A stretch of 64,000 nucleotides of DNA. It comes from Candidatus Bathyarchaeota archaeon. GTDB lineage: Archaea > Thermoproteota > Bathyarchaeia > 40CM-2-53-6 > RBG-13-38-9. The stretch spans positions 480,001 to 544,000 of the forward strand of contig CAWECG010000003.1 in the NCBI GenBank assembly GCA_963807605.1. The letters are read 5' to 3'. Shown in pieces: positions 2,747 to 61,213 of the stretch (the first letter of the stretch is position 1; each line of letters opens with the position of its first letter). The position numbers were made by a program, and so were the translations under genes. The notes beneath the pieces were generated by a model, which did no database searches, was not told where the DNA came from, and was given only the letters and a program-made list of their open reading frames with translations.

Positions 2747-2970
2747 GCAAACTCGTACGCTTAGAAAGCTACAGTCTCGCCTTGAATAAGCGCGCGCCTA
2801 AATGATGGCAACCACAAACGAGATCATTTTTCAAGCAATGCACTAGATCCTTAGAACAACGTTCAGTATTGTTTCAGAATGACGTATACAATAAGCAAAC
2901 TTAAGTAGAACACTCCATCGTCATCAGGAATAACTCGTATGAATCCAGTCAAACCAGTGGTGATGGTCTG

Positions 2971-3525
2971 ATGTATGAAGTCAGATGGCACGGTAGAGCA
3001 GGTCAAGGGGTAATTACGATTAGTCGCCTTCTAGGCTTGGCTGCCATGTTGGAAGGTAAGCACATCCAAGCCTTCCCCGAATTTGGACCAGAACGGATTG
3101 GTGCTCCAATGTCAGGTTTCACGAGAATGTCTGACAAGCCGATTGAAATTCATAACAAGATCTACAACCCGGATGCTGTCATAGTCTTGGATCCAACTTT
3201 GTTTGCTTTTGTCAATGTGAGTGACGGGCTGAAATCGAATGGGAGTCTCCTTGTCAATACCACTGAAGCTCCAAAGCAAGTTCTGACCAGACTGGGGCTT
3301 AAGGGTCCATCATGTTTTTGTGTCGATGCAACAGGAATCTCACTCAAGATCCTGAAGAGCACAAGGGGATTCAACACAGTGATGCTGGGTGCATTTGCTA
3401 AAGCAACTGATGTAGTTTCAATGGACTCCGTTAGAGAAGCTGTTAGATCACGATTCTCGGGAGAACTGCTTGAGAAGAACTTGGAGTTATTGGCAAGCGG
3501 AAATCAAGAGGTAGTTACTTTATGA
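2971..3525 (+). CDS. porC: Pyruvate/2-oxoacid:ferredoxin oxidoreductase gamma subunit
   Basis: EVRWHGRAGQG and FPEFGPERIGAP motifs; first gene of a four-gene operon. Confidence 0.92.
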   Translation: MYEVRWHGRAGQGVITISRLLGLAAMLEGKHIQAFPEFGPERIGAPMSGFTRMSDKPIEIHNKIYNPDAVIVLDPTLFAFVNVSDGLKSNGSLLVNTTEAPKQVLTRLGLKGPSCFCVDATGISLKILKSTRGFNTVMLGAFAKATDVVSMDSVREAVRSRFSGELLEKNLELLASGNQEVVTL

Positions 3526-3860
3526 GTCAGAAGGAAAGTCTGAGCGAACGAATGAAACTCAGCTGGAAAGATATGCCCATTGGGGGCGTTATGTTCGAAC
3601 CCGGTTCCACTGTCGAATATAAGACAGGAGCATGGAGGGTACAAAAGAAACCACTCATAGATCAGGATAAGTGCATTCGATGCTTAATATGTTGGATCGT
3701 ATGTCCCGACGTTTCCATTGAACGCCTACCGAAATCCTACAAGAAGTACACAGAGAGCGTTAGAGTAGACTATGAACACTGCAAAGGTTGCGGCATCTGT
3801 TCTGCTGAATGCCCCGTAGACGCTATTGAGATGGTGGAGGAATCAAAGGTTGTACCGTAA
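3522..3860 (+). CDS. porD: Pyruvate/2-oxoacid:ferredoxin oxidoreductase delta subunit (2x[4Fe-4S])
   Basis: KTGAWR, CIRCLICWIVCP and CKGCGICSAECP. Confidence 0.92.
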   Translation: MSQKESLSERMKLSWKDMPIGGVMFEPGSTVEYKTGAWRVQKKPLIDQDKCIRCLICWIVCPDVSIERLPKSYKKYTESVRVDYEHCKGCGICSAECPVDAIEMVEESKVVP

Positions 3861-5121
3861 GAAAAGCGAATTCACAGCTGAAGGAATCATTCCCTACTCG
3901 GGGGAAGGAGACACTGTCACAATAACAGGAGGAGCAGTATGCACCCAAGTGGGCTGCGCTTACACAGGTGATGAAGCTGTCGCATACGCAGCCAAACAGT
4001 CTGATGTTGATGTCGTCGCTGCTTACCCAATCACGCCTCAAACCATCATTGTGGAGAGATTCAGTGAATATGTTGCAAACGGTGAAGTTGACACAAAATT
4101 TATGGCTGTAGAGTCTGAGCACTCTGCAATGTCTGCTTGTGTTGGATCGAGTCTGGCAGGTGCGCGAGTATTCACATCGACCGCCAGCCAAGGACTGGCC
4201 TTGATGCATGAAGTCCTCTACCTAGCATCCGGCCTCCGATCCCCTATCGTTATGGCCGTTGTCAATCGAGCCCTCTCAGCGCCGATCAACATACATGGAG
4301 ATCACAGTGATATGATGGGCTCACGAGATTGTGGGTGGATCCAAATATATGCTGAGAATGCCCAAGAAGCCTACGACTGTACCATACAAGCATTCAAGAT
4401 AGCCGAGGACACTCGTGTCCAACTTCCAGTAAGCGTTAATCTCGACGGCTTTTTCGTTTCGCATGCAACAGAGAGCATGAAAGTCATAGCTGATGAGGCA
4501 GTTACCCGATTTCTCCCCCCCAGAAAGCCCCTCTTCAAGGTAGATCCAACAGTACCATTATCCGTAGGTGGAATGATGTTGCCCGAATATTATTATGAAG
4601 TAAAACGTCAGCAAGAGGAGGCGCTCCGTCTTTCAAAACCGGTTGTAAGTAGTATCGGGAAAGAGTATGGAGAATTGACTGGAAGACGATACGGCCTTAT
4701 GGAGACCTACGGGCTTGAGGATGCTGACGCAGCCATAATCGCCTTGGGAAGTACTTGTGGAACTGTCCGGTCAGTCGCAAAGCAGCTCAGGGCTAAGGGC
4801 AAGAAAGTTGGAGCAATCAAACTATGGGTGTACAGGCCTTTTCCCATTGAGGAGTTCCTCTCCAGTGTAGAGGATCTTAAGGCACTCACGGTATTGGATC
4901 GAGCTATTAGCTTTGGAGCTCCCTACGGTGCCTTATGCAGTGACATAGCGTCCGCCCTACAAAACACTGGAAGCGACTTGAAGGTGCTTAACATGATTTA
5001 CGGTCTTGGAGGACGTGACATACCCACCTCAACAATCGAGCAGGTCTTTGAGGATACGCTTGAAACTGCAAAGACGCGTAAAGTAAGTGGGCGCATCAAG
5101 TTCTTGGATGTGAGAGAGTAA
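3850..5121 (+). CDS. porA: Pyruvate/2-oxoacid:ferredoxin oxidoreductase alpha subunit (probable TTG start at 3850)
   Basis: AAYPITPQT, ESEHSAMS, TASQGLALMHE and YGLGGRD motifs. Confidence 0.92.
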   Translation: MYRKKSEFTAEGIIPYSGEGDTVTITGGAVCTQVGCAYTGDEAVAYAAKQSDVDVVAAYPITPQTIIVERFSEYVANGEVDTKFMAVESEHSAMSACVGSSLAGARVFTSTASQGLALMHEVLYLASGLRSPIVMAVVNRALSAPINIHGDHSDMMGSRDCGWIQIYAENAQEAYDCTIQAFKIAEDTRVQLPVSVNLDGFFVSHATESMKVIADEAVTRFLPPRKPLFKVDPTVPLSVGGMMLPEYYYEVKRQQEEALRLSKPVVSSIGKEYGELTGRRYGLMETYGLEDADAAIIALGSTCGTVRSVAKQLRAKGKKVGAIKLWVYRPFPIEEFLSSVEDLKALTVLDRAISFGAPYGALCSDIASALQNTGSDLKVLNMIYGLGGRDIPTSTIEQVFEDTLETAKTRKVSGRIKFLDVRE

Positions 5122-6056
5122 TGGTTGCACTAAAAGATCTGTCGAAAGAGGAACTCTACGCTCCAGGCCACAGACTCTGCGCGGGATGCGGGCCATCAAT
5201 ATCTGTCAGGATGGCGCTCAAGGCAACGAGGGGTCCAACCGCAGTTGTCAACGCAACGGGCTGTGTCGAAGTCTCCACCACTATATTCCCCTACACTGCC
5301 TGGAGGATCCCATGGGTACATGCCCTCTTCGAGAACGCCGCCGCAGTTGCCAGCGGTCTAGAATACGGCTACGAAGCACTAGAGAAACGTGGCGAGAGAA
5401 AGGGCAAGGTCGATGTAATAGCTCTCGGAGGTGACGGGGGAACCTTTGACATAGGGATCCAAGCACTCTCAGGTATGCTTGAGAGAGGTCATGACATTGT
5501 CTACATATGTTATGATAATGAGGCTTACATGAATACGGGGATCCAACGTTCGGGTGCTACTCCAAGAGGTGCCGCAACTACGACAACCCCGGCTGGGAAG
5601 GTTATACCTGGCAAGAGGGAGAACAAGAAGGACCTAGCGGGCATCTGTGCAGCTCATGGGATAAGTTACGTAGCGACAGCCTCGATAGGCTTTTTCAGTG
5701 ACTATATCGAAAAGGTGAAGAAAGCAATTGAAGTGGATGGACCCGCTGTCATACACGTCCTAGCTCCCTGCCCGCTCGGCTGGCGCTCAAACCCCACAGA
5801 TACGATAAAGCTGGCAAAGATGGTGGTGCAAACAGGATTGTTTCCGATCTATGAGATTATAAACGGGCAATACAAGATGAGCCTTAAACCGGGCAAGCTT
5901 GTCCCGATTGAAGAATACTTTAAGCTTCAGGGAAGATTCTCTCACCTCTTGAAACCAGAATCCAAAGACGAACTCGAAGCGATAAAGCGAGAGGTTGAGA
6001 AGAACTACAATAGAGTTCTAAGATTAGCTGGCGAGCAGACCACCCCATCAAAATAG
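5121..6056 (+). CDS. porB: Pyruvate/2-oxoacid:ferredoxin oxidoreductase beta subunit
   Basis: GHRLCAGCG; TPP motif GGDGGTFDIG...YDNEAYMNTGIQRS; PCPLGW. Confidence 0.93.
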   Translation: MVALKDLSKEELYAPGHRLCAGCGPSISVRMALKATRGPTAVVNATGCVEVSTTIFPYTAWRIPWVHALFENAAAVASGLEYGYEALEKRGERKGKVDVIALGGDGGTFDIGIQALSGMLERGHDIVYICYDNEAYMNTGIQRSGATPRGAATTTTPAGKVIPGKRENKKDLAGICAAHGISYVATASIGFFSDYIEKVKKAIEVDGPAVIHVLAPCPLGWRSNPTDTIKLAKMVVQTGLFPIYEIINGQYKMSLKPGKLVPIEEYFKLQGRFSHLLKPESKDELEAIKREVEKNYNRVLRLAGEQTTPSK

Positions 6057-6286
6057 TCCAATAGGCATATTACGTAGCGTTTTGTTAACTTAGTCTAGCT
6101 TGGCTCGCGCGCGCTGTGGTCCGGATATCAAGTCAACCAGAAGGGAATCTGTCAGGCGATCGCTTTGAATAAGTGAGATCGTGGATTACATGAGGCATAA
6201 GTTGATGTCCGCGCCTCAACTGCCCAAGTTTATTTTTATATTTTGGATGCTATACTGACCAGTTAAGCGAATCGAAGGCAAATAGT

Positions 6287-6634
6287 ATGGGGCATGACAT
6301 AAGAGAGGTAGAGTCTGGAGACCTGGTGGCTAAGAAGGCACTGCTGGCTGACTTGGTAGTCTATCAAAAGGGGTCTGTGGTAAGCAGGACAATAATCGAC
6401 AAGGATTCGGGAACAGTGACACTATTCGCTTTCGATCAAGACCAAGGATTAAGTGAACACACGGCGCCGTTTGATGCTCTGATCAACATTCTTGATGGTG
6501 AGGCTGAAGTCATCATTTCTAGTAAAGCCTATCGTTTAAAGGAAGGCGAAATGATCATCATGCCCGCCAATGAGCCACATGCACTAAGAGCCGCAAAGAA
6601 ATTCAAAATGATATTGACTATGATAAGGTCTTGA
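6287..6634 (+). CDS. Cupin domain protein
   Basis: TLFAFDQDQGLSEHTAPFDA and MPANEPHAL cupin motifs. Confidence 0.85.
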   Translation: MGHDIREVESGDLVAKKALLADLVVYQKGSVVSRTIIDKDSGTVTLFAFDQDQGLSEHTAPFDALINILDGEAEVIISSKAYRLKEGEMIIMPANEPHALRAAKKFKMILTMIRS

Positions 6635-6808
6635 GTCTATCACTGCCCAGTTGCTTGAGGATTCTATTAGGCCTTTGATTTTTGACGTTCTAATATGTCT
6701 CGGATCTCATTCAGAGCCGCTTCGATTGTAAGAGGCATAACACGCGCGCTAACACAATTATACATATTAAACATTTCTTGGCAGTACTATAATTTGGAGA
6801 AGATCAAT

Positions 6809-7225
6809 TTGCCATCTGAAGGTGTCTGCAGGTTCAGCGTATCGGCTCCTAGAAGCCTTGTTGAAGAATTTGACTCTGTCATCAAGAAGATAGGTTACGA
6901 TAGGTCAAAAGCGATCCAAGCTGCAATGCGTATATTCCTAAACGATTACAAATGGACACATGACGTTGGAGGCAATATAGCTGGAGGTCTCGTAATGATC
7001 TACGACCACGAGATTCAAGGTTTGGAAGAAGACCTGACGGATGTCCAACACCGCTACCAGAACATAATCAGTTCGACCACACATGTACATCTCGATGAAC
7101 GTCACTGCCTTGAGATAATCCCGCTTAAAGGAGAGGCAAAACTCGCCAAGAAGCTGTCTGAGGAGATCATGACGAAAAGGGGAGTCAAACAGAGCAGGTT
7201 AGTGGCGATTACACAATCAACCTGA
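6809..7225 (+). CDS. nikR: Nickel-responsive regulator NikR (probable TTG start at 6809)
   Basis: RHH N-terminus (RFSVS...RSKAIQAAMR) and metal-binding domain YDH...HVHLDERHCLE. Confidence 0.9.
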   Translation: MPSEGVCRFSVSAPRSLVEEFDSVIKKIGYDRSKAIQAAMRIFLNDYKWTHDVGGNIAGGLVMIYDHEIQGLEEDLTDVQHRYQNIISSTTHVHLDERHCLEIIPLKGEAKLAKKLSEEIMTKRGVKQSRLVAITQST

Positions 7226-7277
7226 TCTTCTTTATGTCGTGCGCGTCAAAGCGTCGAATGGAGCGCATGTATTTCTG

Positions 7278-8099
7278 TTATTTGTGAGAGCTGATTCTTC
7301 TCAACTTGGCGGCTCTATTGGCGATAAGAATTGCCACGACGCCTGCCGCCACACCTCCATCAATATTGACGACAGCTAGCCCTAAGGAACAAGCCTGAAG
7401 CATCGCGGTCAAGGCGCCAACGCCCTTTTCTCCAAATCCATATCCAACTGAGGTTGGAACGCCGATTACTGGAATATCCACCAAACCTGACACAACCGAT
7501 GGTAGCGCCCCCTCTCGTCCAGCAACCACGATTATCGCATCAACGTCTTTCTCTATGATTTCTTTTAGTGGAGAGAATAGTCTATGAAGTCCAGCGATGC
7601 CTACATCATAGGCCGTTAGGACTTCGCAGCCCATCTCCTCAGCAAGGATCCTTGCCTCTTCGGCGACGGGAATGTCTGCCGTTCCTGCGGCTAGGACTCC
7701 GATCTTGCCACCGGTTTTCTCAATTCGAAAGTTCTTCTTCTTTATAGCAACCATGCCGGCTTTCTGATTCACCGTTAGAATGAAGTCGTTTGGAACCGCG
7801 GCCTTGAGGTTTTCAATCTGCTTCTCATTGGCTCGGCTGATTATCACTCTTCCTTTGTCCATCATCTTTAACGCTATTTCTAGAAGATCCTCGGGTGTCT
7901 TCCCTTCGGCTAGGATAATTTCGGGAATTCCCTTTCTAATCTCTCGATTAACATCCAACCTGGCAACATCACTAACTGTATCAATAGCTTGCACTCGAAG
8001 GAGTTTTTCAGCATCGTCTAATGAGATCAACCCCTTCGAAAGTCTCTCCAAGATTTCTCTCAACGGTGACCCACCGACTATGACTCTCAAATCAAACAT
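7278..8099 (-). CDS. larB: Nickel-pincer cofactor biosynthesis carboxylase LarB
   Basis: AGTADIPVAEEA, DVGIAGLHRL, AGREGALPSVV, VPTSVGYG and VVNIDGG. Confidence 0.92.
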   Translation of the reverse strand: MFDLRVIVGGSPLREILERLSKGLISLDDAEKLLRVQAIDTVSDVARLDVNREIRKGIPEIILAEGKTPEDLLEIALKMMDKGRVIISRANEKQIENLKAAVPNDFILTVNQKAGMVAIKKKNFRIEKTGGKIGVLAAGTADIPVAEEARILAEEMGCEVLTAYDVGIAGLHRLFSPLKEIIEKDVDAIIVVAGREGALPSVVSGLVDIPVIGVPTSVGYGFGEKGVGALTAMLQACSLGLAVVNIDGGVAAGVVAILIANRAAKLRRISSHK

Positions 8100-8218
8100 G
8101 TAGCCATATTTTATCTTTGAGAATGAACCCCGCTCGACTGGTAAGCCCTTGACTTATTACAATTGAGGGTAAATCTTACAGTTATTTCCGATCTATGCGC
8201 CCAATGTGAGTATAGTAT

Positions 8219-9127
8219 TCAAGTGCGATCGGTAGGTAGCTTTTTGTCTCTATTCTTCAATGCGACTCTAGGCACTATCTTTTTCTCTAGAGCCTCATCC
8301 ATGCTCCCGCTTCGGTAGCCAAGAAGATCTATGGTCACATACAGAAATCCTAACCTTTTGAGTTTCATTGCCAAGGACTCCATCAATTCCTCGTCGAAAA
8401 AGAGTCTGCGCTCATTTTTCCCAACCTCTATGCGCGCCAAATTCCCGTGGTCACGTATTCGAAGCTCCCTGACTCCAGTCATTTTTCTCAGGAGCTTCTC
8501 GGCTTCAGCTACCCTTCTTATCTTGTCCTCAGTTATCTCCTGGCCATAGGGAAACCTAGAGGATAGACATGCCATGGAGGGTTTGTCTGCGGTGACTAGG
8601 CCAAACATCTTGGCAAGGGCTCTGACTTCAGTCTTCTTAATGCCTGCGTCAGCGAGCGGGCTGAATACCCCGCCCTCAAAAAGCGCTAAGGCTCCTGGCC
8701 TGTGGACTTTCATGTCATCAGCGTTTGTCCCATCAACTATGCATGCGATCCCATGTTCCTCCGCTATCTGCTTTAGTCTCGCGATTAGTTCCTTTTTGCA
8801 GTAGTAGCATCTGTCTGGTGGATTCCTGACGAAGTTTGGATTAGTAGTTTCGTCAACTTTTATCGTTATGTGTCTTATTCCAATTTCTTTGGCAATACCC
8901 TTCGCCTCTTCGAGTTCTCCGTAGGGTAGAGTCGTCGAATTGGCTGTCACCGCGATGGCTTTATTTCCGACAGCCATCTTGGCGATTAATGCAACCAGAG
9001 AACTGTCAACTCCCCCAGACATGGCAACTAGTACGCTGCCTTCGTTTCTTAGCTTATCCAGTACCCTGTTCATCTTCTTTGTCAACATCTTTCGTTGATT
9101 CAATTGTGTTACGCCAGTTTTCCCCAT
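8219..9127 (-). CDS. larE: ATP-dependent sacrificial sulfur transferase LarE
   Basis: PP-loop SGGVDS, RCYYCK, DGTNADD, KPSMACLSSRFPYG and GYRSGSM. Confidence 0.92.
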   Translation of the reverse strand: MGKTGVTQLNQRKMLTKKMNRVLDKLRNEGSVLVAMSGGVDSSLVALIAKMAVGNKAIAVTANSTTLPYGELEEAKGIAKEIGIRHITIKVDETTNPNFVRNPPDRCYYCKKELIARLKQIAEEHGIACIVDGTNADDMKVHRPGALALFEGGVFSPLADAGIKKTEVRALAKMFGLVTADKPSMACLSSRFPYGQEITEDKIRRVAEAEKLLRKMTGVRELRIRDHGNLARIEVGKNERRLFFDEELMESLAMKLKRLGFLYVTIDLLGYRSGSMDEALEKKIVPRVALKNRDKKLPTDRT

Positions 9128-9562
9128 TGGTTCTCACTGCCTCAAGTTTGGAGTCATTACTGTTCCTGTGAATTCTTCTTTTCCAAGCATGGCGTACGAG
9201 TTGCGTACAAGCCATGCGAGGTCATTGATACTGAAGGGATTTGACGTTTGAAGGAATCTGGAGTATGCTCGTAACCAGACAAACCTGCCTAAATTTCTGT
9301 GTAAAAGACTGATACTCCGTGTATTATTTCTGTGTCCTAAGAAGGGGCGCTCGAACGTATTATCTTAGCTCGCGACAAGAGCAGCAAATGCAAACTACTT
9401 CTAATTAACCTATCGTTTAACCACGTGATGCATAGAGATGGATCTTGCGGGGTTTCACACTGGTGGATTGAGTTCGCGCTTCTATTCGGGCAAATGCAAA
9501 GAATTCTTTATTATGAGCTGTGGAAAGAAATGATGATAGAAGCCAATGGATGAGTGTTCAGT

Positions 9563-10039
9563 ATGGAGAGGCAGGTTAAGGTCGGAGATAAGGCTCCAGA
9601 TTTTACGCTATTCGACACTGAATTAAAGCCCAGGAGTCTCAAGGATTTCAAAGGAAATGTCGTGCTAGCCTTTTACCCTGGAGCATTCACCAACACCTGC
9701 ACAAAGGAGATGTGCGCCTTCAGAGATTCTCTTACGAGGCTAAGCGGTCTTAAAGCTCAGGTTGTTGGAATAAGCGTCAACGATCCATTCTCTAACAAAG
9801 CATTTGCCGAGGCAAATGGGCTGACTTTCCCATTGTTAAGCGACTACAATCGAGAAGTTCTTCGGAGATACGGTGTTATGGTGAACGACTTTGCCGGTCT
9901 TAAAGGCTACAGTGCTGCCAAACGTTCCGTCTTCATCATAGACACGAAGGGAATAGTGTGTTACAGATGGGTGACTGAAAACCCAGGAATAGAACCTAAT
10001 TATGGCGAGATAGAAAAGGCGTTAGAGGAAATAAAGTAG
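9563..10039 (+). CDS. Peroxiredoxin (Bcp/PrxQ type)
   Basis: GDKAPDF and [15 protein letters not shown]. Confidence 0.9.
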
Positions 10040-10120
10040 AGGCTTATCGCGCCTCTTAACTATCTTATTGTGCCTCCGATTCTTCGCTTCTACCTTTGTC
10101 TAAACGTTCCTTGTCGAATA

Positions 10121-12061
10121 TTATGTGAAACTCTCTTTCCGAGTTTCTTTGACGTAGTTTATCAGTCCACCTGCGAGCAGGATACGCCTCTCCCTTTTCG
10201 AAAAAGTGTTAAGGCACTCCATTCGCCTTCCTTCTATCTCTATCAGTATTTTTTGAGATTCATGTGTGATCTGATCTTTGACATTCTGGATTTGGATAAT
10301 GTCCCCATAGTTTATTCTACCGTAGTCTTCTGGCTCTGCAAAAATCAGAGGTACCACTCCAAAATTGATTAGGTTAGTTCTATGTATCCTAGCAAAACTC
10401 TTGGCTATTTTGCCCTTCACGCCCAAGTATCGGCATACTAGAGCTGCATGCTCTCGACTCGAACCCTGACCATAATTTTCCCCGCCAACAACGAATCCTC
10501 CTGCCGACTCCTTAGCTCTCCTTGTGAAAGTAGGGTCTACCTTTTCGAAGGTAAACTCGCTTATAGCAGGGATGTTGCTTCTGAGCGGCAGGATCTTACT
10601 TCCGGCAGGAAGTATGTCGTCTGTGCTGACATTATCTGCAAGTTTGAGCAAGACTCTTCCAGAGAGCCTGTCTTCCAGAGCTACAAGAGTAGGGAATGGT
10701 TTGATGTTGGGTCCTCTGAAAACCTCAACGGCTCTCTTGTGCTGCACAGGTGGAATTACTGACTCTTCATTTACAACATAGCGTGTAGGTTCAACTATCT
10801 CTGGATATTCTCCCAAAGTCCTTGGATCTGTTATCTTCCCGTTTATGGCAGCTGCCACCGCGACTTCAGGGCTGCATAGATAGACCTTATCATCTTTTGT
10901 CCCACTTCTACCAGGAAAGTTTCTTGGGAAAGTCCTTAGCGAGACCGTTCCAGTAGCAGGGGCCTGCCCGATTCCTATACACCCAAGACAGCCCAGTTGG
11001 TGGATACGTGCACCAGAACGAATCAGCTGGGTTAGACCGCTTGCATCACCTAAGTTCTCTATAATCTGTCGGCTTCCCGGGTTTACTTCGAAACTGATGT
11101 CTTCATGAATCTTCCTGCCTTCCATTGCCTTTGCGATGATCATCAAATCTCTGAAAGAGGAGTTTGTGCATGAGCCGACTATAACCTGTGCGACCTTGAT
11201 TCCCTCGACCTCTTTTACCCTCCGGACATTGTCAGGAGAGGAGGGGCAAGATATGAGAGGTTCTAGCTCGCTCAAATCCAATTCTGCATGTTCATCATAT
11301 TCTGTGTCAGAGTCAGCCTGGATCCTCTGCCAAGCCTCACCTCTATCTTGAGCTTCAAGGAATCTCTTGGTGTTATCATCTGAAGGGAATACGGTAGAGG
11401 TCGCGCCCAACTCTGCTCCCATATTGGCAATAGTTGCCCTCTCAGGCGTAGCCAGAGTCTCGACGCCTGGTCCATAATACTCTATGATCTTTCCGAGGCC
11501 GCCTTTGACGGAGTATCTTCTGAGCATCTCAAGTATGACGTCTTTGGCTGAAACCCAAGGTCTGAGTCGGCCTGTTAACTTCACTCCAAAGATGCTCGGT
11601 ACCTTAAGATAGAAAGGTTCACCAGCCATAGCCATCGCGACATCCAAGCCACCTGCGCCGATGGCGAGCATCCCGCATCCTCCGGAGGTTGGAGTGTGGC
11701 TGTCAGAGCCCAGAAGCGTCTTGCCGGGAACTGCGAAGCGTTCAAGATGGATATGATGTGAAATTCCATTGCCGGGTTTGGAGAAGTAGACGCCGAACTT
11801 CTTGGCGGTGGTCTGAAGGAATAAGTGGTCATCCATATTTCGGAAATCTGTCTGCAAGAGGTTGTGGTCGACATAGCTTACTGAGAGTTCCGTCTTCACA
11901 TGCGGAATGCCGAGAGCTTCAAATTCTATGAAGGCAAGGGTACCTGTTGCATCTTGGGTAAGTGTTTGATCGATTCTTACTGCTATCTCTTCCCCAGGTT
12001 CAAATCGGCCTTCGACCAAGTGGTTCTCAATTATCTTTTGAGCTACACTCTTGCCCATCAA
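10121..12061 (-). CDS. Aconitate hydratase (short ~650 aa form)
   Basis: TQDATGT, DSHT, GSCTN, CLGCIG and NYGQGSSREHAA. Confidence 0.92.
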   Translation of the reverse strand: MMGKSVAQKIIENHLVEGRFEPGEEIAVRIDQTLTQDATGTLAFIEFEALGIPHVKTELSVSYVDHNLLQTDFRNMDDHLFLQTTAKKFGVYFSKPGNGISHHIHLERFAVPGKTLLGSDSHTPTSGGCGMLAIGAGGLDVAMAMAGEPFYLKVPSIFGVKLTGRLRPWVSAKDVILEMLRRYSVKGGLGKIIEYYGPGVETLATPERATIANMGAELGATSTVFPSDDNTKRFLEAQDRGEAWQRIQADSDTEYDEHAELDLSELEPLISCPSSPDNVRRVKEVEGIKVAQVIVGSCTNSSFRDLMIIAKAMEGRKIHEDISFEVNPGSRQIIENLGDASGLTQLIRSGARIHQLGCLGCIGIGQAPATGTVSLRTFPRNFPGRSGTKDDKVYLCSPEVAVAAAINGKITDPRTLGEYPEIVEPTRYVVNEESVIPPVQHKRAVEVFRGPNIKPFPTLVALEDRLSGRVLLKLADNVSTDDILPAGSKILPLRSNIPAISEFTFEKVDPTFTRRAKESAGGFVVGGENYGQGSSREHAALVCRYLGVKGKIAKSFARIHRTNLINFGVVPLIFAEPEDYGRINYGDIIQIQNVKDQITHESQKILIEIEGRRMECLNTFSKRERRILLAGGLINYVKETRKESFT

Positions 12062-12409
12062 TAATCAAACCTTGCTTCTGTCTATGTGATATTGCGATCT
12101 TGAATTAGCTGGACGCTGAGACTTGGACCGGGCATCATGATAGGTTATTGCAGCAAGCCTTGAAGGGCCTATGTCTGCCCCAGCGGCGAAATAAAAGATT
12201 TGCTTCAAAGATGATATGCGTGGAACAGTTCATCATTATCATCATGATGATTTCCTGACCTTAAATAAGTGATATTAAGATACAGTCAAACAGCATTTCA
12301 CTATCATCAATGGATTTGGAAAGACCGACAAAATTATGGTAGGTAAGATTCCGGCTTCACAAACGGACGATTGTTTTTGAGATGTAGCTCATGACAGAAG
12401 CGTGCGCGC

Positions 12410-12673
12410 TTGCGTCTCTATAGTGGTATTGAACGTCAGTGAGTGCTTCTTGGACTCCGTGGGATCGGTGGTCATAGGTTAACAGAACCGCGCATGCTTC
12501 AAGTTTGTTTTCTCTCCTTTCCATGTATAGTCTGTGATGAAGTTGCGCATGGCAACCTGCAACCCTTTCGATCGGTCTTTGTATCCTATTGCCCTGAGCG
12601 AATCATCAAATTGCTTCATCAACTTTGGAGGCGTAGAGAAGCTAAACTTGTCCACCTTCACCAAGAACGGCAC
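12410..12673 (-). pseudogene. nikR: Second nikR, frameshifted and 3'-truncated
   Basis: RHH domain KFSFS...DRSKGLQVAMR; after a frameshift near 12490 it reads AVLLTYDHRSHGVQEALTDVQYHYRD; similarity ends at GCGCGC 12404-12409, before the HxHxxxxxC Ni site. Confidence 0.8.
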
Positions 12674-12795
12674 ACCTCCCCTCCAAGTGCAACTTTCAAC
12701 ATATCACAATTTCGTCTTTCAGCTTCTGATATGATAACCTATCCAGCGGATCAAGTGATTATCGGGCATCCGCACCATCCTAAAAGTTTATTAGA

Positions 12796-12823
12796 GTAAC
12801 ACTAATCAGCGAAATCGTAATAC
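12796..12823 (+). promoter_or_regulatory. Candidate NikR operator GTAACA-N16-TAATAC just downstream of a TATA-like box
   Basis: Fits the NikR GTAnnA-N16-TnnTAC dyad; lies between AAAAGTTTATTA (12782-12793) and the nikM start at 12836. Confidence 0.7.
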
Positions 12824-12835
12824 TGGTGACTTACC

Positions 12836-13609
12836 GTGCATATTCCGGATGGATATCTAGGGCCTTCAACGTTCATTTTCTTCTACATATTCATGATCCC
12901 GTTATGGTTCGTAGCGTCTAGGAAAGTGGAGAAAAATCTCAAGACCAAGGAAATACCTTGGCTTGCTTTTGGAGTGGCCTTCTCATTCGTGATAATGATG
13001 TTCAACTTTCCCGCGCCTGGAGGAACAACGGGGCACGCGGTTGGGGCGGCTATCCTTGCATTAACCTTGGGGCCTTGGTTCGGGTTTCTGGGTGTTACAG
13101 GTGCGCTGCTAATTCAATGCCTCTTGTTTGGAGACGGAGGAATAACCACTTTCGCTGCTAACTCGTTCAACATGGGGCTAGTCATGTCCTTTGTCAGCTA
13201 CTATGTCTACAAGTTGCTGGCTACTCGTGCTTCCGTTTTGTCGCGTCGGCGTTGGTTGGCGGCTGCGACATCCGGATATGTTGGACTAAACGCCGCGGCT
13301 CTGTGCTGTGCGATAGAATTAGGTCTTCAGCCTCTACTGTACTACACTGCGAACGGCAGCCCTCTCTACGCTCCTTTCCCGCTATCTGTAACGATTCCCG
13401 CCATGTTGATTTCTCACATGTTTATTTTCGGGTTTGTCGACGCGGCTGCAACTGGTTTCTTGGTTTCCTACATAATTCGTTCCGACCCATCAATGTTAGC
13501 ACCTTCAATGGCGCAAAGCATTCCGGGCAGCCCGGTGGTGAATGAGCAGTCTCCAGCGCCAAAGCGTCAATTTTCAGAAGACTGTGGATGCTCCTCGCCG
13601 TTTTGGTAG
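12836..13609 (+). CDS. nikM: ECF Ni/Co transporter substrate-binding component NikM/CbiM (probably the N-part of a fused NikMN split by a frameshift)
   Basis: N-terminal MHIPDGYL; GTTGHAVG; LFGDGGIT. Confidence 0.88.
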   Translation: MHIPDGYLGPSTFIFFYIFMIPLWFVASRKVEKNLKTKEIPWLAFGVAFSFVIMMFNFPAPGGTTGHAVGAAILALTLGPWFGFLGVTGALLIQCLLFGDGGITTFAANSFNMGLVMSFVSYYVYKLLATRASVLSRRRWLAAATSGYVGLNAAALCCAIELGLQPLLYYTANGSPLYAPFPLSVTIPAMLISHMFIFGFVDAAATGFLVSYIIRSDPSMLAPSMAQSIPGSPVVNEQSPAPKRQFSEDCGCSSPFW

Positions 13610-13908
13610 TACTGGTTCCCGTGGGTCTGTTGGCTCCGGGATCGGCGTTTGCCGAATGGAGTGCTTCCGAGCTGGAAACACTATTTGGGATCACGCCTCC
13701 TGCAGGGCTCACCAGCTTGGAAGGATTATACAATGCTCCTTTGAGTGGCTACAGCGTGCCTGGAGCAACGACCTTCACCCAACTTAGCCTGGCGTATATC
13801 CTCGCAGCCGCCATTGGGGTATCTATTTTCGGTTTGTGTCTTTTCGCGTTCTACCGAGTTAAATCAAGAGCTATCGTCTCAGATGCTGTACCTCCAGAAG
13901 AGGCGTGA
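13588..13908 (+). CDS. nikN: NikN/PDGLE-like membrane component
   Basis: Two TM segments; LLAPGSAFAEW and APLSGYSVPG; in-frame upstream RRLW suggests fusion to NikM. Confidence 0.7.
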   Translation: MLLAVLVVLVPVGLLAPGSAFAEWSASELETLFGITPPAGLTSLEGLYNAPLSGYSVPGATTFTQLSLAYILAAAIGVSIFGLCLFAFYRVKSRAIVSDAVPPEEA

Positions 13909-13914
13909 TTTCAG

Positions 13915-14859
13915 ATGCTTCCTGAATGGCTCAGTCAGAGACCAACCGTCGGCGCTTGTCCCTGCTGCACCGTAGGAGGGCCTAGCAAGAAGAGCATTGT
14001 GGATAGAACCATAGGAGCCTTCTCAGGTTTCTTCGATGAATCCAGCTTCGCTGAAGGCTATGCATGCAAGGGAGGGCTACTGCAATTCGTTGACCCGCGT
14101 TTCAAGCTGGTCGGGATGCTTTGGCTTGTCGTTTGTGTTATCCTTGTGAGTCGCGTGGAATGGGTTCTTGTTATTCTTGGGGTTGCTATTCTTCTTGCTG
14201 TTGCCTCGAAAGTGAGGCTGGGTTACTACCTGAAGAGAGTTTGGCTCTTCATCCCGCTATTCACATTGGTCATTGCTGTGCCGGCTATGTTCAACTTCAT
14301 CGTTCCCGGGCAACCTCTTTTCGTACTGCTAAGTAAGGGTCAGCCCCTTGGTCCTCTTGTTTTTCCGTGGACGATTTCAATCACGGTTCCTGGCCTTCAA
14401 GGGGCCGTCCTCTTTGTCTTGAGGACAGGAGCTGCCGTTTCCTTTGTGATCCTACTCGCTTTGACCACCCGCTGGACTGACCTGCTAGCATCTCTTCAAA
14501 GTCTGAGGGTTCCAAAGGCCTTCGTGATGATACTCGGCATGACTTACAGGTATGTGTTCGTCCTAGTGGGCATTGCACAAGACATGTCCTTTGCCCTAAA
14601 GAGCAGAACACTGAACCCCGAACGTAGTGCGAATGTGAGAGAGTGGTTGGGTGCAACGATTGGAGTGCTTTTCCGTCGGTCAATGAATATGAGTGAGCTT
14701 GTTAATTTGTCAATGATTTCACGTGGTTATGATGGGAGAGCCAGAAAGGTTACTGAATTCCGCGCTGAACCGTTTGACTGGGCTTTCTTGGGATTTCTCC
14801 TTGGACTAGGCGTATTACTACTAATGCTTCGCAATATCGCCGTGTTGAATGGGATTTGA
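13915..14859 (+). CDS. cbiQ: ECF Ni/Co transporter transmembrane component CbiQ/NikQ
   Basis: DPRFKL, LRVP...MTYRY, ALKSR and MISRGY. Confidence 0.9.
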   Translation: MLPEWLSQRPTVGACPCCTVGGPSKKSIVDRTIGAFSGFFDESSFAEGYACKGGLLQFVDPRFKLVGMLWLVVCVILVSRVEWVLVILGVAILLAVASKVRLGYYLKRVWLFIPLFTLVIAVPAMFNFIVPGQPLFVLLSKGQPLGPLVFPWTISITVPGLQGAVLFVLRTGAAVSFVILLALTTRWTDLLASLQSLRVPKAFVMILGMTYRYVFVLVGIAQDMSFALKSRTLNPERSANVREWLGATIGVLFRRSMNMSELVNLSMISRGYDGRARKVTEFRAEPFDWAFLGFLLGLGVLLLMLRNIAVLNGI

Positions 14860-14860
14860 A

Positions 14861-15677: not shown

Positions 15678-15883
15678 AATTCAGGCCATTTCGATTCCCA
15701 AGCCGAATCTCGTTCGATCCCGTTTGCCATTCACTATTTCAAGAAAACTCAGTCCAAACCATGAAAGGTCTGCAAGTCGTAGACTAACGATTGCTTTGTC
15801 GGGTAATCAGCGAAATCATGCAGAAAGCCAACGGAGGGCTCTAGCCTGACAATATTGATTGGTAGCGCGGACTAGCTGGCAGG

Positions 15884-20460: not shown

Positions 20461-20469
20461 GATCTAACC

Positions 20470-52250: not shown

Positions 52251-53329
52251 TGCTGTGTTGCGCGACTAGGTTTCAGTGATGTTTTTCGCTTTTGTTGGCT
52301 GTCTTCAGGTTTCGTCTAGCCGTGTGTTGCTGTGGTTGTTTCTATCAGCATGTTGTATAGTGAGGCTTTGATCATCATCTCCTGTGCCATGTTTTGCATC
52401 GTTTTGGCTGAGACGTATTCTCCGAAGGTTCGCTTCAGCGATGAGAAGGCTGATTCAGCCATCCATCTATACCCGTAGCCATGATTGTGTTTCCAGGCTT
52501 CAGGGTCTTTGAGGTATTCTTGGGCTACGAGCTTTCTGGGCATGCATCCTCCGGCCCTGCTGGATGTGTTCTTGCGCACCTTGATGGCTGGCTCAATCCC
52601 TTTTGCGTTGAGATAGCGGAAGTTGCTTTTCATATCGTATGCTCCGTCGCCAATTGCCTTGGCGACCTTACCTTTCTTGGAGGCTTCATCAACAAGCGGC
52701 TGGAGCATCCCTCCGTCACCTGTCTTCTCATCCGTCACCTTCAAGGCGAGTATCTTCTTCCGCTTTACATCAACGGCGATATGGATCTTGAGGTATCCGC
52801 GTCTCACCTTCCATTTATGGCGTATCCATTCGCCGCGGTTAGCCACCTTGATGCCTGATGCGTCCACCGCCAGGACTATGTCGTCGCCATAATCTTTCTC
52901 ATCCAGCTTCACATCTAACCTGTTCACGCGTCTATCTATGGTTGAATAGTCAGGCACATGGATCCTTGAGTCGAATCTTCTCAGGGCTTTGAGGAATCCT
53001 TCTGTCTGCCTGTAGGGTAGGTGGAATAGCAGGTGCATGTAGCCTAGAAGCCTGATGAAGATCTCAGGGTAGACGTATTGTCCACCTTCCTTCCCAGTAT
53101 TCATCTTTTCAAGCTCAATGTTCCACCTGTCAAGGATGCGTGGGTCAAGCAGGATCTCCCCACGCTTCACGAGACCCTCATTGATGCGTCTCCAATCTCT
53201 AGCAGCCAATCACAATCGTGGAATAGTTCTCTCACAGGCAATATAGATCATCCAACCACTTCCACGTCAATAAACCGAAAACTCAAACCTACATCCATAA
53301 ACAAAAATGTCTAGTCATGCAACACAGCA
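52251..53329 (-). mobile_element. IS5-family insertion sequence, 1079 bp, intact
   Basis: 19-bp TIRs TGCTGTGTTGC(GC/AT)GACTAG; 8-bp direct repeat CGCGCGTA at 52243-52250 and 53330-53337. Confidence 0.9.
52316..53209 (-). CDS. IS5-family DDE transposase
   Basis: LPYRQTEG, PDYSTI, VDASG, KIHIAVD, GDGAYD and Y..RWMAESAFS. Confidence 0.93.
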   Translation of the reverse strand: MAARDWRRINEGLVKRGEILLDPRILDRWNIELEKMNTGKEGGQYVYPEIFIRLLGYMHLLFHLPYRQTEGFLKALRRFDSRIHVPDYSTIDRRVNRLDVKLDEKDYGDDIVLAVDASGIKVANRGEWIRHKWKVRRGYLKIHIAVDVKRKKILALKVTDEKTGDGGMLQPLVDEASKKGKVAKAIGDGAYDMKSNFRYLNAKGIEPAIKVRKNTSSRAGGCMPRKLVAQEYLKDPEAWKHNHGYGYRWMAESAFSSLKRTFGEYVSAKTMQNMAQEMMIKASLYNMLIETTTATHG

Positions 53330-55628: not shown

Positions 55629-55680
55629 TCAATCAAAATGCGTTTTGATTGAAACGTTGGGAGATGGAACTGTAAGCGAA

Positions 55681-55821
55681 ATGATTCCAGCAACAACCTC
55701 AAACGGCCAGCAAGTTCTTATTATGAAAGAGCGGTCTCAGCAGACAAAGGGAAAGAAAGCGCAGCAAAACAACATATTTGCTGGCAAACTGCTAGCCGAA
55801 CTCATCAAAACAAGCTTGGGA
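55681..55821 (+). pseudogene. 5' fragment of a third thermosome subunit gene
   Basis: MIPATTSNGQQVLIMKERSQQTKGKKAQQNNIFAGKLLAELIKTSLG aligns with the N-termini of the two intact thermosomes; cut at ACGCGCGCGT. Confidence 0.85.
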
Positions 55822-55961
55822 CGCGCGCGTAAATTATCAAGATCGAGAACGCATGAAACGGTGCCTAGGCATTTTCGAAGACTTCTGCATTGTTACCCAA
55901 AGCGTCAGGAATGGCATCAATGTCCAGGTTGCCGTCCAGTCCTGAGTGGAGGTGATTGCAT

Positions 55962-57704: not shown

Positions 57705-57872
57705 GCTTCAGCTCAGGGTATTTCAGCTCCTTTTCTTATAACTGCTTCAAGCATTCTCTCTATGTTGTAGTATCCCTGCGGTGTGCACACACAATAATTT
57801 CTCTGTAGGAAGTGGAAAACCTCTAAGACCTCTCTTTAATTAGGCAGATACATTTGCCATCTGAGGACGTGC

Positions 57873-58193: not shown

Positions 58194-58268
58194 ATTTGTA
58201 ACTCCTTAATTTTTTGTCATGATCACAAACAGGAGTCTTAGTCTTGCTGTCAACACTGGCTTCTAAGA

Positions 58269-59421
58269 CTAGGCCTCAAGCTTTTGTCTAATTCTGCCCA
58301 CGTTCTTGGAGACCAAGTCTACGGTATAGTCAACCTCCTCTTTGCTAGTCCATCTTCCCAGGCTGAATCTGACAGCGCCCAACGCAGTCTCTCTGGATAA
58401 TCCCATTGCTGTTAGTACTGGGGATGGCTCCATGGAGTCTGAGTGGCAGGCTGAACCTGTGGACGCCGCAATCTCTGGAATGCTCCTCAGAAGCTCTTCT
58501 CCGACTAGGCCTTTGAAGCTTAGATTCAGGGTATTCGGGAGCCTCTCCTCTGGGTGTCCATTCAATACCACGGAATCCCCACCCAGCTTGTCCAAGATGC
58601 CTTGGTAAAGCCCTTCTCTGAGAATCCTTGATTCTAGGTTTGAAGTCTGGGAGGTCTCTCTTCGCTATCTCGCAGGCCTTGCCCAACCCTACAATGTAGG
58701 GGACGTTCTCAGTGCCTGCACGTCTGCCCCGCTCCTGGCCTCCTCCATGGATCAGACTGTCCAGCTGTGTTCCGTTTCGAATGTAAAGCGCTCCTATGCC
58801 TTTTGGAGCATACAACTTGTGACCTGCTATGGTAAGGAGATCCACCTCAAGACTGTCTACATCCACGTCAGTCTTACCACAGGACTGGGCTGCATCAGTA
58901 TGGAATAGGATTCCTCTTTCGTTCAGAATCTTGCTGATCTCTTCGATGGGCTGAATCGTTCCAGTCTCATTGTTGGCATGCATAATCGTGACGAGGACAG
59001 TCTCGTCTGTGATGGCTTTCTCCAAGTCTTCTGTGCTTATGATCCCAAACTTGTCGACTGGAAGATATGTGACTCTGTATCCCAGTCTCTCCCTAAGATA
59101 ATTGCATGTTTTCAATACTGCTGGATGTTCTGTCTGAGATGTGACTATGTGCCCCTTCCTTCCGTGTGCAGTTGCAGTCCCTGTGATGGCTTGGTTGTTG
59201 CTTTCTGATCCGCTGCTGGTGAAGACGATCTCATCAGGTTCGCAGCCTATCAGTGCAGCGGTCTTCTCGCGGGCTGCGACTACTGCTTCATGGGCTCGCT
59301 GGCCGTAAACATGGTTGCTTGAAGGGTTACCGAACTCGTCCTTTAGATATGGAAGCATGGCCTCCAGGACTTGTGGGTCTGTGGGTGTAGTGGCGTTGTA
59401 GTCCATGTAGACTGGCTTCAA
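58269..59421 (-). pseudogene. iscS: Cysteine desulfurase (IscS/NifS) with a +1 frameshift near 58627 (possibly a sequencing error)
   Basis: DYNATTP, GNPSS, HTDAAQ and AGHKLYAPKG; catalytic STGSACH lies in the second frame. Confidence 0.85.
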
Positions 59422-59426
59422 TCTCT

Positions 59427-59795
59427 CTACTTCCTCTGAAGTATGCTCTTGACGAGCCTCTCTTCGCTGGTGAGATGCTCGAAAAGCGTCTCTCTAATCA
59501 TCTCGCATGCCTGAGTGATCTTCGGATTCGATATTCTGTAGTAAATGCTGGTTCCCTCTCTTCTAGTTAGGACAATGTTCTTGTCTCTCAAGACGGCCAA
59601 GTGCTGTGAGACGTTAGCCTGAGGTAGCCTGAGCATCTGGGCAAGTTCGTTAACTGATTTTTCGCCGCTTCTGAGAAGGTAGAGTATCTTCAACCTGACA
59701 GGGTTCGCAAGGGTCTGGCACATGGCTGCATGTAACTCAAAGACCCTATCCTCTGATGAACTTAGATGAGGCATTCTTGTTTCCTTCCTCTCCAC
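59427..59795 (-). CDS. ArsR/SmtB family regulator
   Basis: LANPVRLKIL, QANVSQHLAVLR and RREG..IYY. Confidence 0.9.
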   Translation of the reverse strand: MERKETRMPHLSSSEDRVFELHAAMCQTLANPVRLKILYLLRSGEKSVNELAQMLRLPQANVSQHLAVLRDKNIVLTRREGTSIYYRISNPKITQACEMIRETLFEHLTSEERLVKSILQRK

Positions 59796-59865
59796 ATATG
59801 ACTAGCACATGATATAAAACAATATTCTTATATATTAATATGATTATAACTAACAACAATATAAA

Positions 59866-60273: not shown

Positions 60274-60286
60274 GAGGACTAACAGA

Positions 60287-61057
60287 ATGAACAGAAGGAT
60301 CCTACTTGGAGTAATCCTAATCATAATAGGCATCGTAGGGTTAGTCGCATTCTCAACAGTACAATGGGCACCAACATACACAGGCCCAACACCTGCACCT
60401 TATCCAACATCGACCGCGCCTTTCCAAATAACTCCAACGCCGACCCCGGGACAATACCAACCTTACCCAGCAATTCCAAGGAATATAGATGAGGCAGCAC
60501 AGGTGGCGAAGAGCTGGGTAGCATCCTTAGGATACCCTGACTTAGCCGTCAAGGAGATCATGGAGTTCCAGTATAACTACTACTTCATCGTCTACGAGAA
60601 GAGCACAGGGATCGACGCCTTCGAAGGAATCATCGAGAAAGCAGTCGGCCTAAGCGGAATGGGCGGGATGATGGGAATAGTACATCCAGAGCAAGGGCCG
60701 AGCATGATGTGGAACACCAAGTACGGACAGATGGCCAGTTGGGGCCCGACGGGTGGTAGCTGGAATCAAGGCGGAGGAATGATGAGCCGTGGATGGGGCT
60801 ACCAACCATACAGTGGAGTGCCCACCGCCAATATGTCGGTTACAAAGACAGATGCAAAGCAACTAGCCCAAACCTACCTAGACTCGAACCTTCCAGGCAC
60901 CTCACTAGAAGAACCAGAAACCTTCTACGGATACTATACCCTGCATGTCCTCAAGGATGGCAATATATACGGAATGTTAAGCGTCAACGGCTACACCGGT
61001 CAGGTATGGTACCACACCTGGCACGGCGCCTTCATACAAGAGAAAGCTCTGACCTAA
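60287..61057 (+). CDS. Membrane-anchored hypothetical protein (Met/Gly-rich, PepSY-like)
   Basis: N-terminal TM; PEQGPSMMWNTKYG and GMLSVNGYTGQVWYHTWHG. Confidence 0.8.
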   Translation: MNRRILLGVILIIIGIVGLVAFSTVQWAPTYTGPTPAPYPTSTAPFQITPTPTPGQYQPYPAIPRNIDEAAQVAKSWVASLGYPDLAVKEIMEFQYNYYFIVYEKSTGIDAFEGIIEKAVGLSGMGGMMGIVHPEQGPSMMWNTKYGQMASWGPTGGSWNQGGGMMSRGWGYQPYSGVPTANMSVTKTDAKQLAQTYLDSNLPGTSLEEPETFYGYYTLHVLKDGNIYGMLSVNGYTGQVWYHTWHGAFIQEKALT

Positions 61058-61092
61058 GAAACGCCACACCTTCTTTACCACAAGGAGTCGGA

Positions 61093-61198
61093 CTGCCAGT
61101 GAATAACGTCAATACGGAACAGTTGCAGAAGTTCATGGAGACTGTGAAGAAAGATCCAAAGCAAGCGTTGAAGGAGAAGAATGTCACCGGGGAATGGG
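61093..61198 (+). pseudogene. 5' fragment of an OsmC-like gene
   Basis: AAGGAG SD, then (M)PVNNVNTEQLQKFMETVKKDPKQALKEKNVTGEW, cut at GCGCGCG. Confidence 0.6.
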
Positions 61199-61213
61199 GC
61201 GCGCGAACGTAAT

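Follow-up and report, generated by a model that had tools for sequence, protein, structure and literature searches.

CG tracts as marks of DNA joints, and possible remnants of insertion-sequence ends, in a Bathyarchaeia genome

We analysed short tracts of alternating C and G, of the form A(CG)nT, in a 64,000-nt stretch of the genome of a Bathyarchaeia archaeon and across the remainder of that genome. The stretch, hereafter the window, is C3:480001-544000 of genome G000, which has 2.65 Mb at 47% GC in five contigs; coordinates are those of the window unless a contig prefix (C1, C3, C4) is given, and G0xx labels denote genomes of relatives. The evidence supports well that these tracts mark points at which DNA was broken and rejoined in this lineage, the joints being those of one-sided deletions, edges of inserts and truncations of genes. 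Also well supported is a turnover in which tracts arise continually and then decay roughly neutrally. As to their source, we put at about 0.5 the probability that they derive from the GCGCGC ends of a particular clade of insertion sequences (IS), through transposition-linked deletion and joining.

In the window, alternating CG runs of at least 8 nt occur at 2790-2797 (GCGCGCGC), 6106-6114 (9 nt, CGCGCGCGC, downstream of a 2-oxoacid:ferredoxin oxidoreductase operon), 18288-18295 (the canonical aGCGCGCGCt), 19820-19829 (10 nt, GCGCGCGCGC), 28498-28505 (again aGCGCGCGCt) and 55822-55829 (the canonical aCGCGCGCGt). Runs of 7 nt are found at 6743-6749 (aCGCGCGCta), at 28478 (GCGCGCG, which forms with its canonical neighbour a tract pair, 28478-28505, in one spacer), at 37076-37082, on the right edge of a variable segment (about 35160-37114) almost without counterpart in relatives, and at 61199-61205 (GCGCGCG); one further 7-mer lies inside a gene (37468-37474, in gene 37143-37988) and is probably a chance coding occurrence. 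Every run listed in the initial annotation of this DNA was found where it had been placed. The claim made there that runs of 8 nt or more are non-coding also held, as none lies within a credible gene and the 55822 tract overlaps only a spurious open reading frame (ORF) that reads across the end of a pseudogene. The heptamer CGCGCGC has 20 matches in the window against 3.35 expected, a number reached by 0 of 100 dinucleotide-preserving shuffles. Scans of the whole window for tRNAs and against Rfam returned no match.

Genome-wide, tracts total about 450. Runs of 6, 7, 8, 9, 10 and at least 11 nt number 321, 127, 198, 74, 36 and 12, respectively, so that 8-mers are commoner than 7-mers, and 75-84% of the runs of at least 7 nt are in non-coding DNA, which makes up 19% of the genome. 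The core is preceded by A at position -1 in 77% of tracts and followed by T at +1 in 80%, with a weaker preference for T at -2 and A at +2; there is no conservation beyond +/-2 of the CG core, and the conserved sequence amounts to 10-12 bp in all. Motif expectations were taken from a third-order Markov model of non-coding DNA. Against this model the canonical A(GC)4T, AGCGCGCGCT, occurs 94 times in non-coding DNA versus 2.6 expected, an excess of the kind that the initial annotation had proposed to look for, and the variants ACGCGCGCGT (21 versus 1.5) and ACGCGCGCGCGT (14 versus 0.2) are likewise enriched. Shorter palindromes show no enrichment (AGCGCT, 128 versus 186 expected; AGCGCGCT, 35 versus 22), nor does the same core with other flanks (TGCGCGCGCA, 1 versus 1.6; GGCGCGCGCC, 2 versus 1.3). 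Given this specificity for length and flanks, the motif is a discrete 10-base palindrome, A(GC)4T, with close variants, and not a repeat grown by slippage; a slippage-grown microsatellite or Z-DNA tract was rejected because 8-mers outnumber 7-mers, neither A(GC)2T nor A(GC)3T shows an excess, and A/T flanks are required. We found no published description of this A(GC)4T motif in the literature.

Tracts are present in every type of intergenic spacer, with a mild bias to the 3' ends of genes (in tandem spacers, 93 are nearer the stop codon and 58 nearer the start codon), and they are strongly clustered along the contigs, in variable regions. When non-coding DNA is counted with margins of 3 nt, AGCGCGCGCT is intact in 99 copies and altered by a single core substitution in another 96; of these substitutions, 53 are transitions. 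A ratio of about 1:1 between intact and one-hit copies corresponds to a mean age close to 0.1 substitutions per site and to a roughly neutral decay; together with the spread of lengths, it fits variable joining followed by neutral decay, and not a motif kept by selection.

Gene fragments are one line of evidence that tracts lie at joints. The initial annotation had named four fragments that end at a tract, and each was verified as a truncation. A 50-aa N-terminal thermosome fragment (55672-55821, plus strand; 46% identical to thermosomes) is broken after TSLG at the 55822 tract. A 34-aa OsmC-like N-terminal fragment (61096-61197, plus strand), 3'-truncated at the tract that begins at 61199, matches the beginning of an intact 170-aa paralogue, encoded at C3:306059-306568, with 76% identity; DNA homology to this paralogue ends at 61197, homology of G001, G006 and G008 likewise ends at 61197/61198, and the missing 3' part was found nowhere in the genome. 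The nikR2 pseudogene (12414-12655, minus strand; residues ~44-123, with one frameshift) is 3'-truncated, its end lying 4 bp from a decayed tract, AGCGTGCGCGCT, at 12399-12410. The fourth is a 57-aa C-terminal fragment of cas1 (19638-19814, minus strand), cut at the 19820 tract with ~345 N-terminal residues missing and 61% identical to the 402-aa Cas1 encoded at C3:803495-804703 (Pfam Cas_Cas1, E = 2.7e-49). The solo cas1 reported at 19820 is therefore a fragment, as had been claimed; its placement is corrected here, as the cas1 piece lies on the opposite side of the tract from ORF 19840-20460 (minus strand), which adjoins the tract and encodes a 2Fe-2S/4Fe-4S protein. A tentative fifth fragment (6667-6742, minus strand) proved to be a C-terminal remnant of cbiO, of ~23 codons (6670-6742, minus strand), with its 5' side truncated by the 6743 tract: its sequence MPLTIEAALNEIR matches MPLTIDEALDEIQ, residues 279-291 of the 297-aa CbiO of G001, and it occupies the same position beside a cupin gene.

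The association extends beyond the window. With queries spanning the test position, a paralogue-detectable fragment end was found within 15 bp of 23 of 393 tracts, compared with 26 of 1,965 control positions (odds ratio 4.6, P = 6e-7), in line with the enrichment at truncated gene ends that the initial annotation had anticipated. Both 5' and 3' truncations occur at tracts genome-wide, and 5.4% of the ends of intragenomic repeat alignments are near tracts, versus 2.2% of non-coding DNA. The missing gene halves were sought next to other tracts, as had been proposed, and were not found there for osmC, thermosome or nikR; the events that made the fragments are thus deletions or partial copies, not splits.

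Larger rearrangements are delimited in the same way. A lineage-specific insert of 7.8 kb (12062-19839) is absent from G012, in which the aconitase and ferredoxin genes are adjacent, 217 bp apart and without a tract between them. The insert consists of module A (the nikR2 pseudogene, a foreign cbiMNQO operon, a methyltransferase gene and ORF216) and module B (ORF383 and the cas1 fragment), with tracts at the edges and at the internal module boundary: the decayed tract at 12399 forms the left edge of module A, the canonical tract at 18288 lies between the modules, 9 bp past the ORF216 stop codon, and the insert is bounded on its right by the 19820 tract, with the stop codon of the ferredoxin-domain gene 10 bp away. 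A further decayed tract, tAGCGCGGACTag (15864-15873), directly adjoins a second cas1 fragment (15764-15862, minus strand). ORF383 (18437-19588) was considered as a transposase and rejected, being single-copy and without a Pfam match. In G001, which belongs to the same genus, nikR and the cupin gene are separated by a full cbiM-N-Q-O operon, with no tract on either side of it; relative to G001, the 6743 tract marks a ~2.7-kb deletion, joining the cbiO remnant to the region upstream of nikR. As the cbiMNQO of the insert is only 29-40% identical in amino acids to the native operon of G001, compared with 77% for NikR, the lineage has lost its native Ni/Co transporter operon by deletion and acquired a foreign one 5.7 kb away. 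Not every junction carries a tract, since the edges of another insert (24.3-28.1 kb, a 2-oxoacid dehydrogenase operon) have none, perfect or decayed.

Comparison with relatives places the tracts in the variable part of the genome. In genes, DNA identity to relatives is 65-77%, and gene order is mostly retained, with differing DNA between the conserved blocks; the relatives' own tracts of at least 7 nt are in variable gaps and not at the positions of tracts in G000. G001 has no tract at the spacers orthologous to 2790, 6106 and 6743; soil strains ~97.5% identical are the only relatives in which the 2790 tract is kept, and in these strains synteny breaks at the tract. The number of tracts per genome ranges from 0-1 (G005, G011) up to 298-325 (this genus). 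Enrichment of AGCGCGCGCT was seen in all five other genomes tested, of four genera, with 29-119 copies versus 0-1 for a reversed control.

More recent events were sought among metagenome contigs ~94-98% identical to the region 2001-22000, from soil (X1, X2), marsh (X5) and peat (X6). No run contained a near-identical strain, the best one having 15% of the sampled words, and strain contigs of the four runs used cover the region except for 18676-19342. The tract-edged indels described below come from three independent studies. We counted only joints with a side of at least 90; short-sided joints and those with undefined intervals were excluded as unreliable. On this basis four of five strain-level joints involve a tract, the fifth (16244->16341) being tract-free. 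In joint 2113->2790 (X1, X2), 676 bp (2114-2789) including the rubrerythrin-like gene are gone and the tract, which directly follows the stop codon of that gene, is kept at the right edge; as the gene is present at this place in G008, this variant is a deletion. In joint 6060->6114 (X2, soil), 152 bases of other sequence take the place of 6061-6113, and the edge coincides with the final base of the tract. Joint 9222->10053 (X1, X2) lacks 830 bp (9223-10052) with the AhpC gene and has ACGCGCGCG at the joint; here the soil strains carry a canonical aCGCGCGCGCt at the 10048 site, and G000 has only the short decayed tCGCGCc (10048-10052), 9 bp past the AhpC stop codon. In joint 9212->9393 (X5), GCGCGCT is present and makes a canonical aGCGCGCGCt. 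Thus, in two of the four tract-linked joints the tract (ACGCGCGCG or GCGCGCT) stands as filler. Homology to three related strains stops at 12399 or begins at 12410, and the left edges of indels are often tract-free. Independent contigs span the 2790 and 6743 junctions (a soil contig at 6743), so that these are not assembly chimeras, a concern raised in the initial annotation. That annotation had named three findings that would speak against it, namely no enrichment at breakpoints, junctions without support from reads, and relatives with the same tracts in unbroken synteny; none of these was encountered.

We then considered which mobile elements could have left such joints. The intact IS that the initial annotation had noted within CGCGCG is there (52251-53329, minus strand; 1,079 bp, with DDE_Tnp_1 and DDE_Tnp_1_5 domains), and this copy duplicated CGCGCGTA. 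It has 8 near-identical copies, and the target duplications collected from them, as had been suggested, are unrelated 8-bp sequences; only one of the eight copies is in CG. The element was therefore rejected as CG-targeted and its position taken as coincidence, the seven other copies lying elsewhere. Most of the abundant IS families of this genome do not end at tracts. Two related families elsewhere in the genome do end in GCGCGC: IS-A (for example C1:531279-532405, ends GCGCGCAGGGTTGTCCCG) and IS-B (for example C4:41596-42732, ends GCGCGCTAGCCTCTTGCAATATT), with 7 copies each and 41% amino acid identity between them. Both are mostly flanked by tA...Ta, and the transposase has DUF772 and DDE_Tnp_1 domains. 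Homologues from at least 8 other genomes, among them G001, G002, G008, G012, G015 and further Bathyarchaeia, keep GCGCGC or GCGCGCGC tips, although their inner repeats differ. Two informative cases indicate that the CG tips are carried by the element and are probably not merely its landing site. In G008 an IS copy has a TAGACT direct repeat outside its GCGCGC tips and the orthologous spacer in G000 is without a CG run, so that in this case the tips travelled with the element; and the paralogous site of one IS-B flank has no tract. In addition, a solo TAGCGCGCTAT occurs in a duplicated IS-A flank, exactly at the position of the IS end in the other copy.

Two details of IS-A are recorded separately. 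At locus L018 (G000:C1:531200-532500) its transposase frame is open for 342 codons and the first ATG/GTG/TTG gives only 208 aa, with the N-terminal DUF772 domain upstream of that start; this suggests a non-canonical start codon or read-in from outside. Another copy (G000:C3:1083302) lies 12 nt downstream of the 3' end of a tRNA with encoded CCA.

These observations suggest the following origin. An element of this IS5/IS1182-type DDE clade, with inverted repeats beginning GCGCGC(GC), would insert and promote an adjacent deletion, an inversion or an event between copies. When the element is lost or removed, a few terminal bases of each end would be joined (GCGC + GCGC) within the preferred A/T flank, giving a CG core of 8 +/- 1-2 nt at the joint. 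Such joints would bound DNA that was moved or lost, and genes would come to look like tract-delimited modules. Transposon footprints had been one of the options in the initial annotation; in these two families with GCGCGC tips that option gains a concrete candidate, and simple footprints of insertion followed by excision are not the rule.

However, this origin needs to be interpreted cautiously, as several results weigh against it. The tract-rich genomes G004, G007 and G010 (158-227 copies of GCGCGCGC; 29-44 of AGCGCGCGCT) yielded no transposase of the clade in protein or DUF772 family searches of these draft metagenome-assembled genomes (MAGs), and the tract-poor G008 and G012 do carry it. 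MAGs often drop multicopy IS, so that the absence weakens the IS origin without refuting it. Solo tracts show no excess of flanking direct repeats, as target duplications would give, for k = 2-6, and TA to the left and TA to the right of tracts occur independently (36 versus 40.8 expected). Most tracts are therefore not simple insert-then-excise footprints, and each side of a solo tract behaves as a separate joint. Fourteen full IS copies and one solo end stand against about 450 tracts (~30:1). GCGC overhangs are self-complementary and would be expected to anneal into TAGCGCTA, a sequence that shows no enrichment in non-coding DNA (6 versus 11.2 expected). Finally, no excision event was observed directly. 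Owing to the missing target duplications, the tract-rich relatives without the IS and the small number of IS copies, the agent behind the tracts is unproven. An origin from IS ends is still the most likely, ahead of a new dedicated recombination system.

Such a system is the alternative that survives best, and we hold it unlikely. It would be a dedicated, previously unrecognised enzyme that acts on or creates A(GC)4T while inserting or deleting gene modules, with IS sharing or exploiting the same site; variants are a sequence-specific nuclease paired with end joining, a site-specific recombinase, or an integrase of Cas1 type that would cleave a short palindrome on either side and leave it duplicated. 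The motif has the same A...T flanks in five genera, including ones without detectable IS of the clade, and the symmetry of its flanks is inverted rather than direct, as expected for a dimeric site-specific protein. Tracts serve as filler at deletion joints, many lie just 3' of stop codons in a cassette-like manner, and one intact 402-aa Cas1 is accompanied by six fragments, two of which abut tracts. Nevertheless, no candidate gene is linked to tracts within the window, ten conserved bases are too few for the known sites of tyrosine or serine recombinases, modules occur in both orientations, the left edges of indels are often tract-free, and neutral decay argues against maintenance of the site. 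As for Cas1, it does not follow tract load (it was not found in G004 or G010), and four of the six cas1 fragments and the intact gene lie away from tracts. Of the original proposal that the tracts are scars of a CG-targeted cut-and-rejoin process, the marking of junctions is thus upheld by the truncations, insert edges, strain indels and 6743 deletion, and a dedicated unrecognised system is not.

A more specific form of this alternative seems doubtful. Here a CG-palindrome-directed cut-and-join system of one Bathyarchaeia family would recognise or write A(GC)4T and excise, insert and swap modules, duplicating or regenerating the site at each joint. The agent could be a solo Cas1-type integrase, working in the manner of spacer integration at a mini-repeat, or another nuclease or recombinase, and the GCGCGC-tipped IS would be a client and not the cause. 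Cas1 is an improbable agent, as neither its distribution among genomes nor its position speaks for it apart from the two fragments in the window. The cas1 fragments themselves lie at C3:1057683, C1:340629, C3:841515 and C3:52877 and at 15764-15862 and 19650-19823 of the window, with the intact gene at G000:C3:803495-804703. The intact Cas1 has a C-terminal extension, and the six scattered fragments may be the remains of casposon-like elements. Casposon integration would be recognised by an intact Cas1 together with inverted repeats and a duplication of 14-15 bp at the ends of the element.

Similarly doubtful is that the tracts pre-existed as the preferred palindromic target of the IS clade (IS1182/IS1272-like, with the palindrome duplicated at both ends), whose activity then rearranged DNA locally. 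Such a pathway of palindrome duplication is known for IS1272 (PMC5678879). In agreement with it, each end of the IS copies has a CG run, 5-8 nt long, beside a conserved inner repeat, in copy L032 both sides show the complete aGCGCGCGC|...|GCGCGCGCt, and a longer palindrome, TTCGGATA-GCGCGC...GCGCGC-TATCCGAA, encloses one IS-A copy. It does not account for the G008 copy at a CG-free site with its duplication outside the tips, for the paralogous empty site of the IS-B copy without a tract, or for the origin of tracts and the new filler tracts at deletion joints.

Intrinsic fragility, in which alternating CG forms non-B structures (Z-DNA or cruciform) and breaks, so that tracts are passive deletion hotspots, is improbable. 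It would agree with one-sided deletions that begin exactly at tract edges and keep the tract; however, 8 bp is very short for Z-DNA, the enrichment is confined to an 8-nt core between A/T flanks and does not increase as runs become longer, and neither the origin of tracts, nor filler tracts, nor the range of 0-325 tracts among relatives of similar GC is accounted for. The Z-DNA-prone breakage offered in the initial annotation likewise does not fit this sharp specificity of length and flanks. A functional intergenic signal (a site for a regulator, chromatin protein or terminator), with the co-occurrence of fragments incidental, is highly improbable, as the tracts, for all that 80% are non-coding with a mild bias to gene 3' ends, are found in all spacer types, cluster strongly in variable regions, lack conservation at orthologous spacers even among genomes of the genus, are absent from some related genera, vary in length and decay near-neutrally.

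Several further features of the region were recorded. The genes at 7278-8099 (AIR carboxylase-like) and 8219-9127 (NAD synthase/QueC-like ATPase) resemble the nickel-pincer cofactor genes LarB and LarE. Beginning immediately after the 18288 tract, 18296-18392 belongs to a conserved element of ~105 bp with an internal hairpin (GTGGATG...CATCCAC), which recurs at C1:397034-397137, C3:51785-51960 and at least 20 other loci, and also in G001. It is usually followed by modular repeats of ~60 bp of the form GCTCTCACCAGCTAnGGCACACACA...GGTTCAAAT, has no Rfam match and could be a small RNA gene or a family of miniature inverted-repeat transposable elements. The ~105-bp repeat was rejected as the carrier of tracts, as its association with CG palindromes is only loose and it belongs with a separate family of small modular repeats. 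Near the tract pair, a stretch of ~190 bp (28183-28375) is 74-78% conserved in G001, G003 and G005 beside different neighbours; it has no clear gene and no Rfam match, and may encode a small protein or RNA. The segments 58220-59849 (a class V aminotransferase gene and a 122-aa ORF) and 57726-57784 are 91-98% identical in DNA to G008:C2, a genome of a different genus with a typical identity of about 66-75%, which points to recent lateral transfer of a ~3.5-kb segment; this segment runs on into the cluster of SHOCT, 256-aa and OsmC genes. In copy C of the 1.2-kb SHOCT/256-aa repeat (G000:C3 ~39,600-39,800), a (GT)n microsatellite of more than 100 bp stands right where the repeat breaks off and is followed by small modular repeats and a GCGCGCGC tract.

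If the tracts are remnants of transposon ends, they preserve in an unusually readable form the deletions, insertions and gene replacements that IS caused in the past, with hundreds of dated scars at base-pair resolution. Such scars are rare in prokaryotes, in which donor sites are usually restored or lost. The record would then allow the turnover of gene modules to be reconstructed in an uncultured archaeal group, as exemplified by the swap of the Ni/Co transporter operon in the window. Should the site instead be made or used by a dedicated enzyme, this would be a type of genome shuffling new to archaea, addressed by 10 bp and perhaps of use as a tool. Either way, the motif offers a practical means of finding variable regions and breakpoints in assemblies of Bathyarchaeia.

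Among known systems, the HIP1 motif of cyanobacteria (GCGATCGC) is also an 8-bp GC-rich palindrome occurring far above expectation; it occurs in coding as well as non-coding DNA and has no link to junctions, whereas the motif described here is 80% non-coding, clustered and junction-linked. An even, HIP1-like spread was accordingly rejected, as 75-84% of tracts are non-coding compared with 19% of the genome and they are strongly clustered. Integron-like cassettes, which have an integrase, attC sites of ~60-140 bp and one orientation, were rejected as well, since here only 10-12 bp are conserved and genes are on both strands; no integrase was found among the window proteins scanned. The excision footprints of Tc1/mariner and P elements consist of the target duplication and a few terminal bases from each end. 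The tracts resemble them in that the core reads as tip + tip (GCGC + GCGC), in the preferred flank, in a length varying by 1-2 nt, and in marking former positions of elements and nearby deletions; they differ in that flanking duplications are absent. To our knowledge, footprints on such a scale have not been described for prokaryotic IS.

The REP/BIME palindromes of bacteria are IS targets (PMC1525189; PMC3733652) and, like the tracts, are abundant intergenic palindromic repeats associated with IS insertions. REPs are imperfect hairpins of 20-40 bp with GTAG/CGTC tags and a RAYT transposase, whereas here 10-12 bp are conserved without hairpin potential; membership of this class was rejected, as nothing is conserved beyond +/-2 of the CG core. 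The IS-excision enhancer (IEE), a PrimPol that acts with microhomology end joining, causes loss of IS and adjacent deletions (PMC9943667). Its one-sided deletions starting at the element boundary are similar to those seen here, although IEE acts on copy-out-paste-in IS (IS3 family) in E. coli. Closest in composition are the palindrome-associated IS of IS1182/IS5 type, which share the DUF772 and DDE_Tnp_1 transposase, the palindrome halves that bracket the elements, and the deletions and rearrangements; for IS1272, "IR-replacing" or stem-loop transposition has been described (PMC5678879). The elements studied here differ from the IS1272 type in that one specific CG palindrome of 8-10 bp is involved and not any stem-loop, and in that at least one copy brings its GCGCGC tips into a non-palindromic site.

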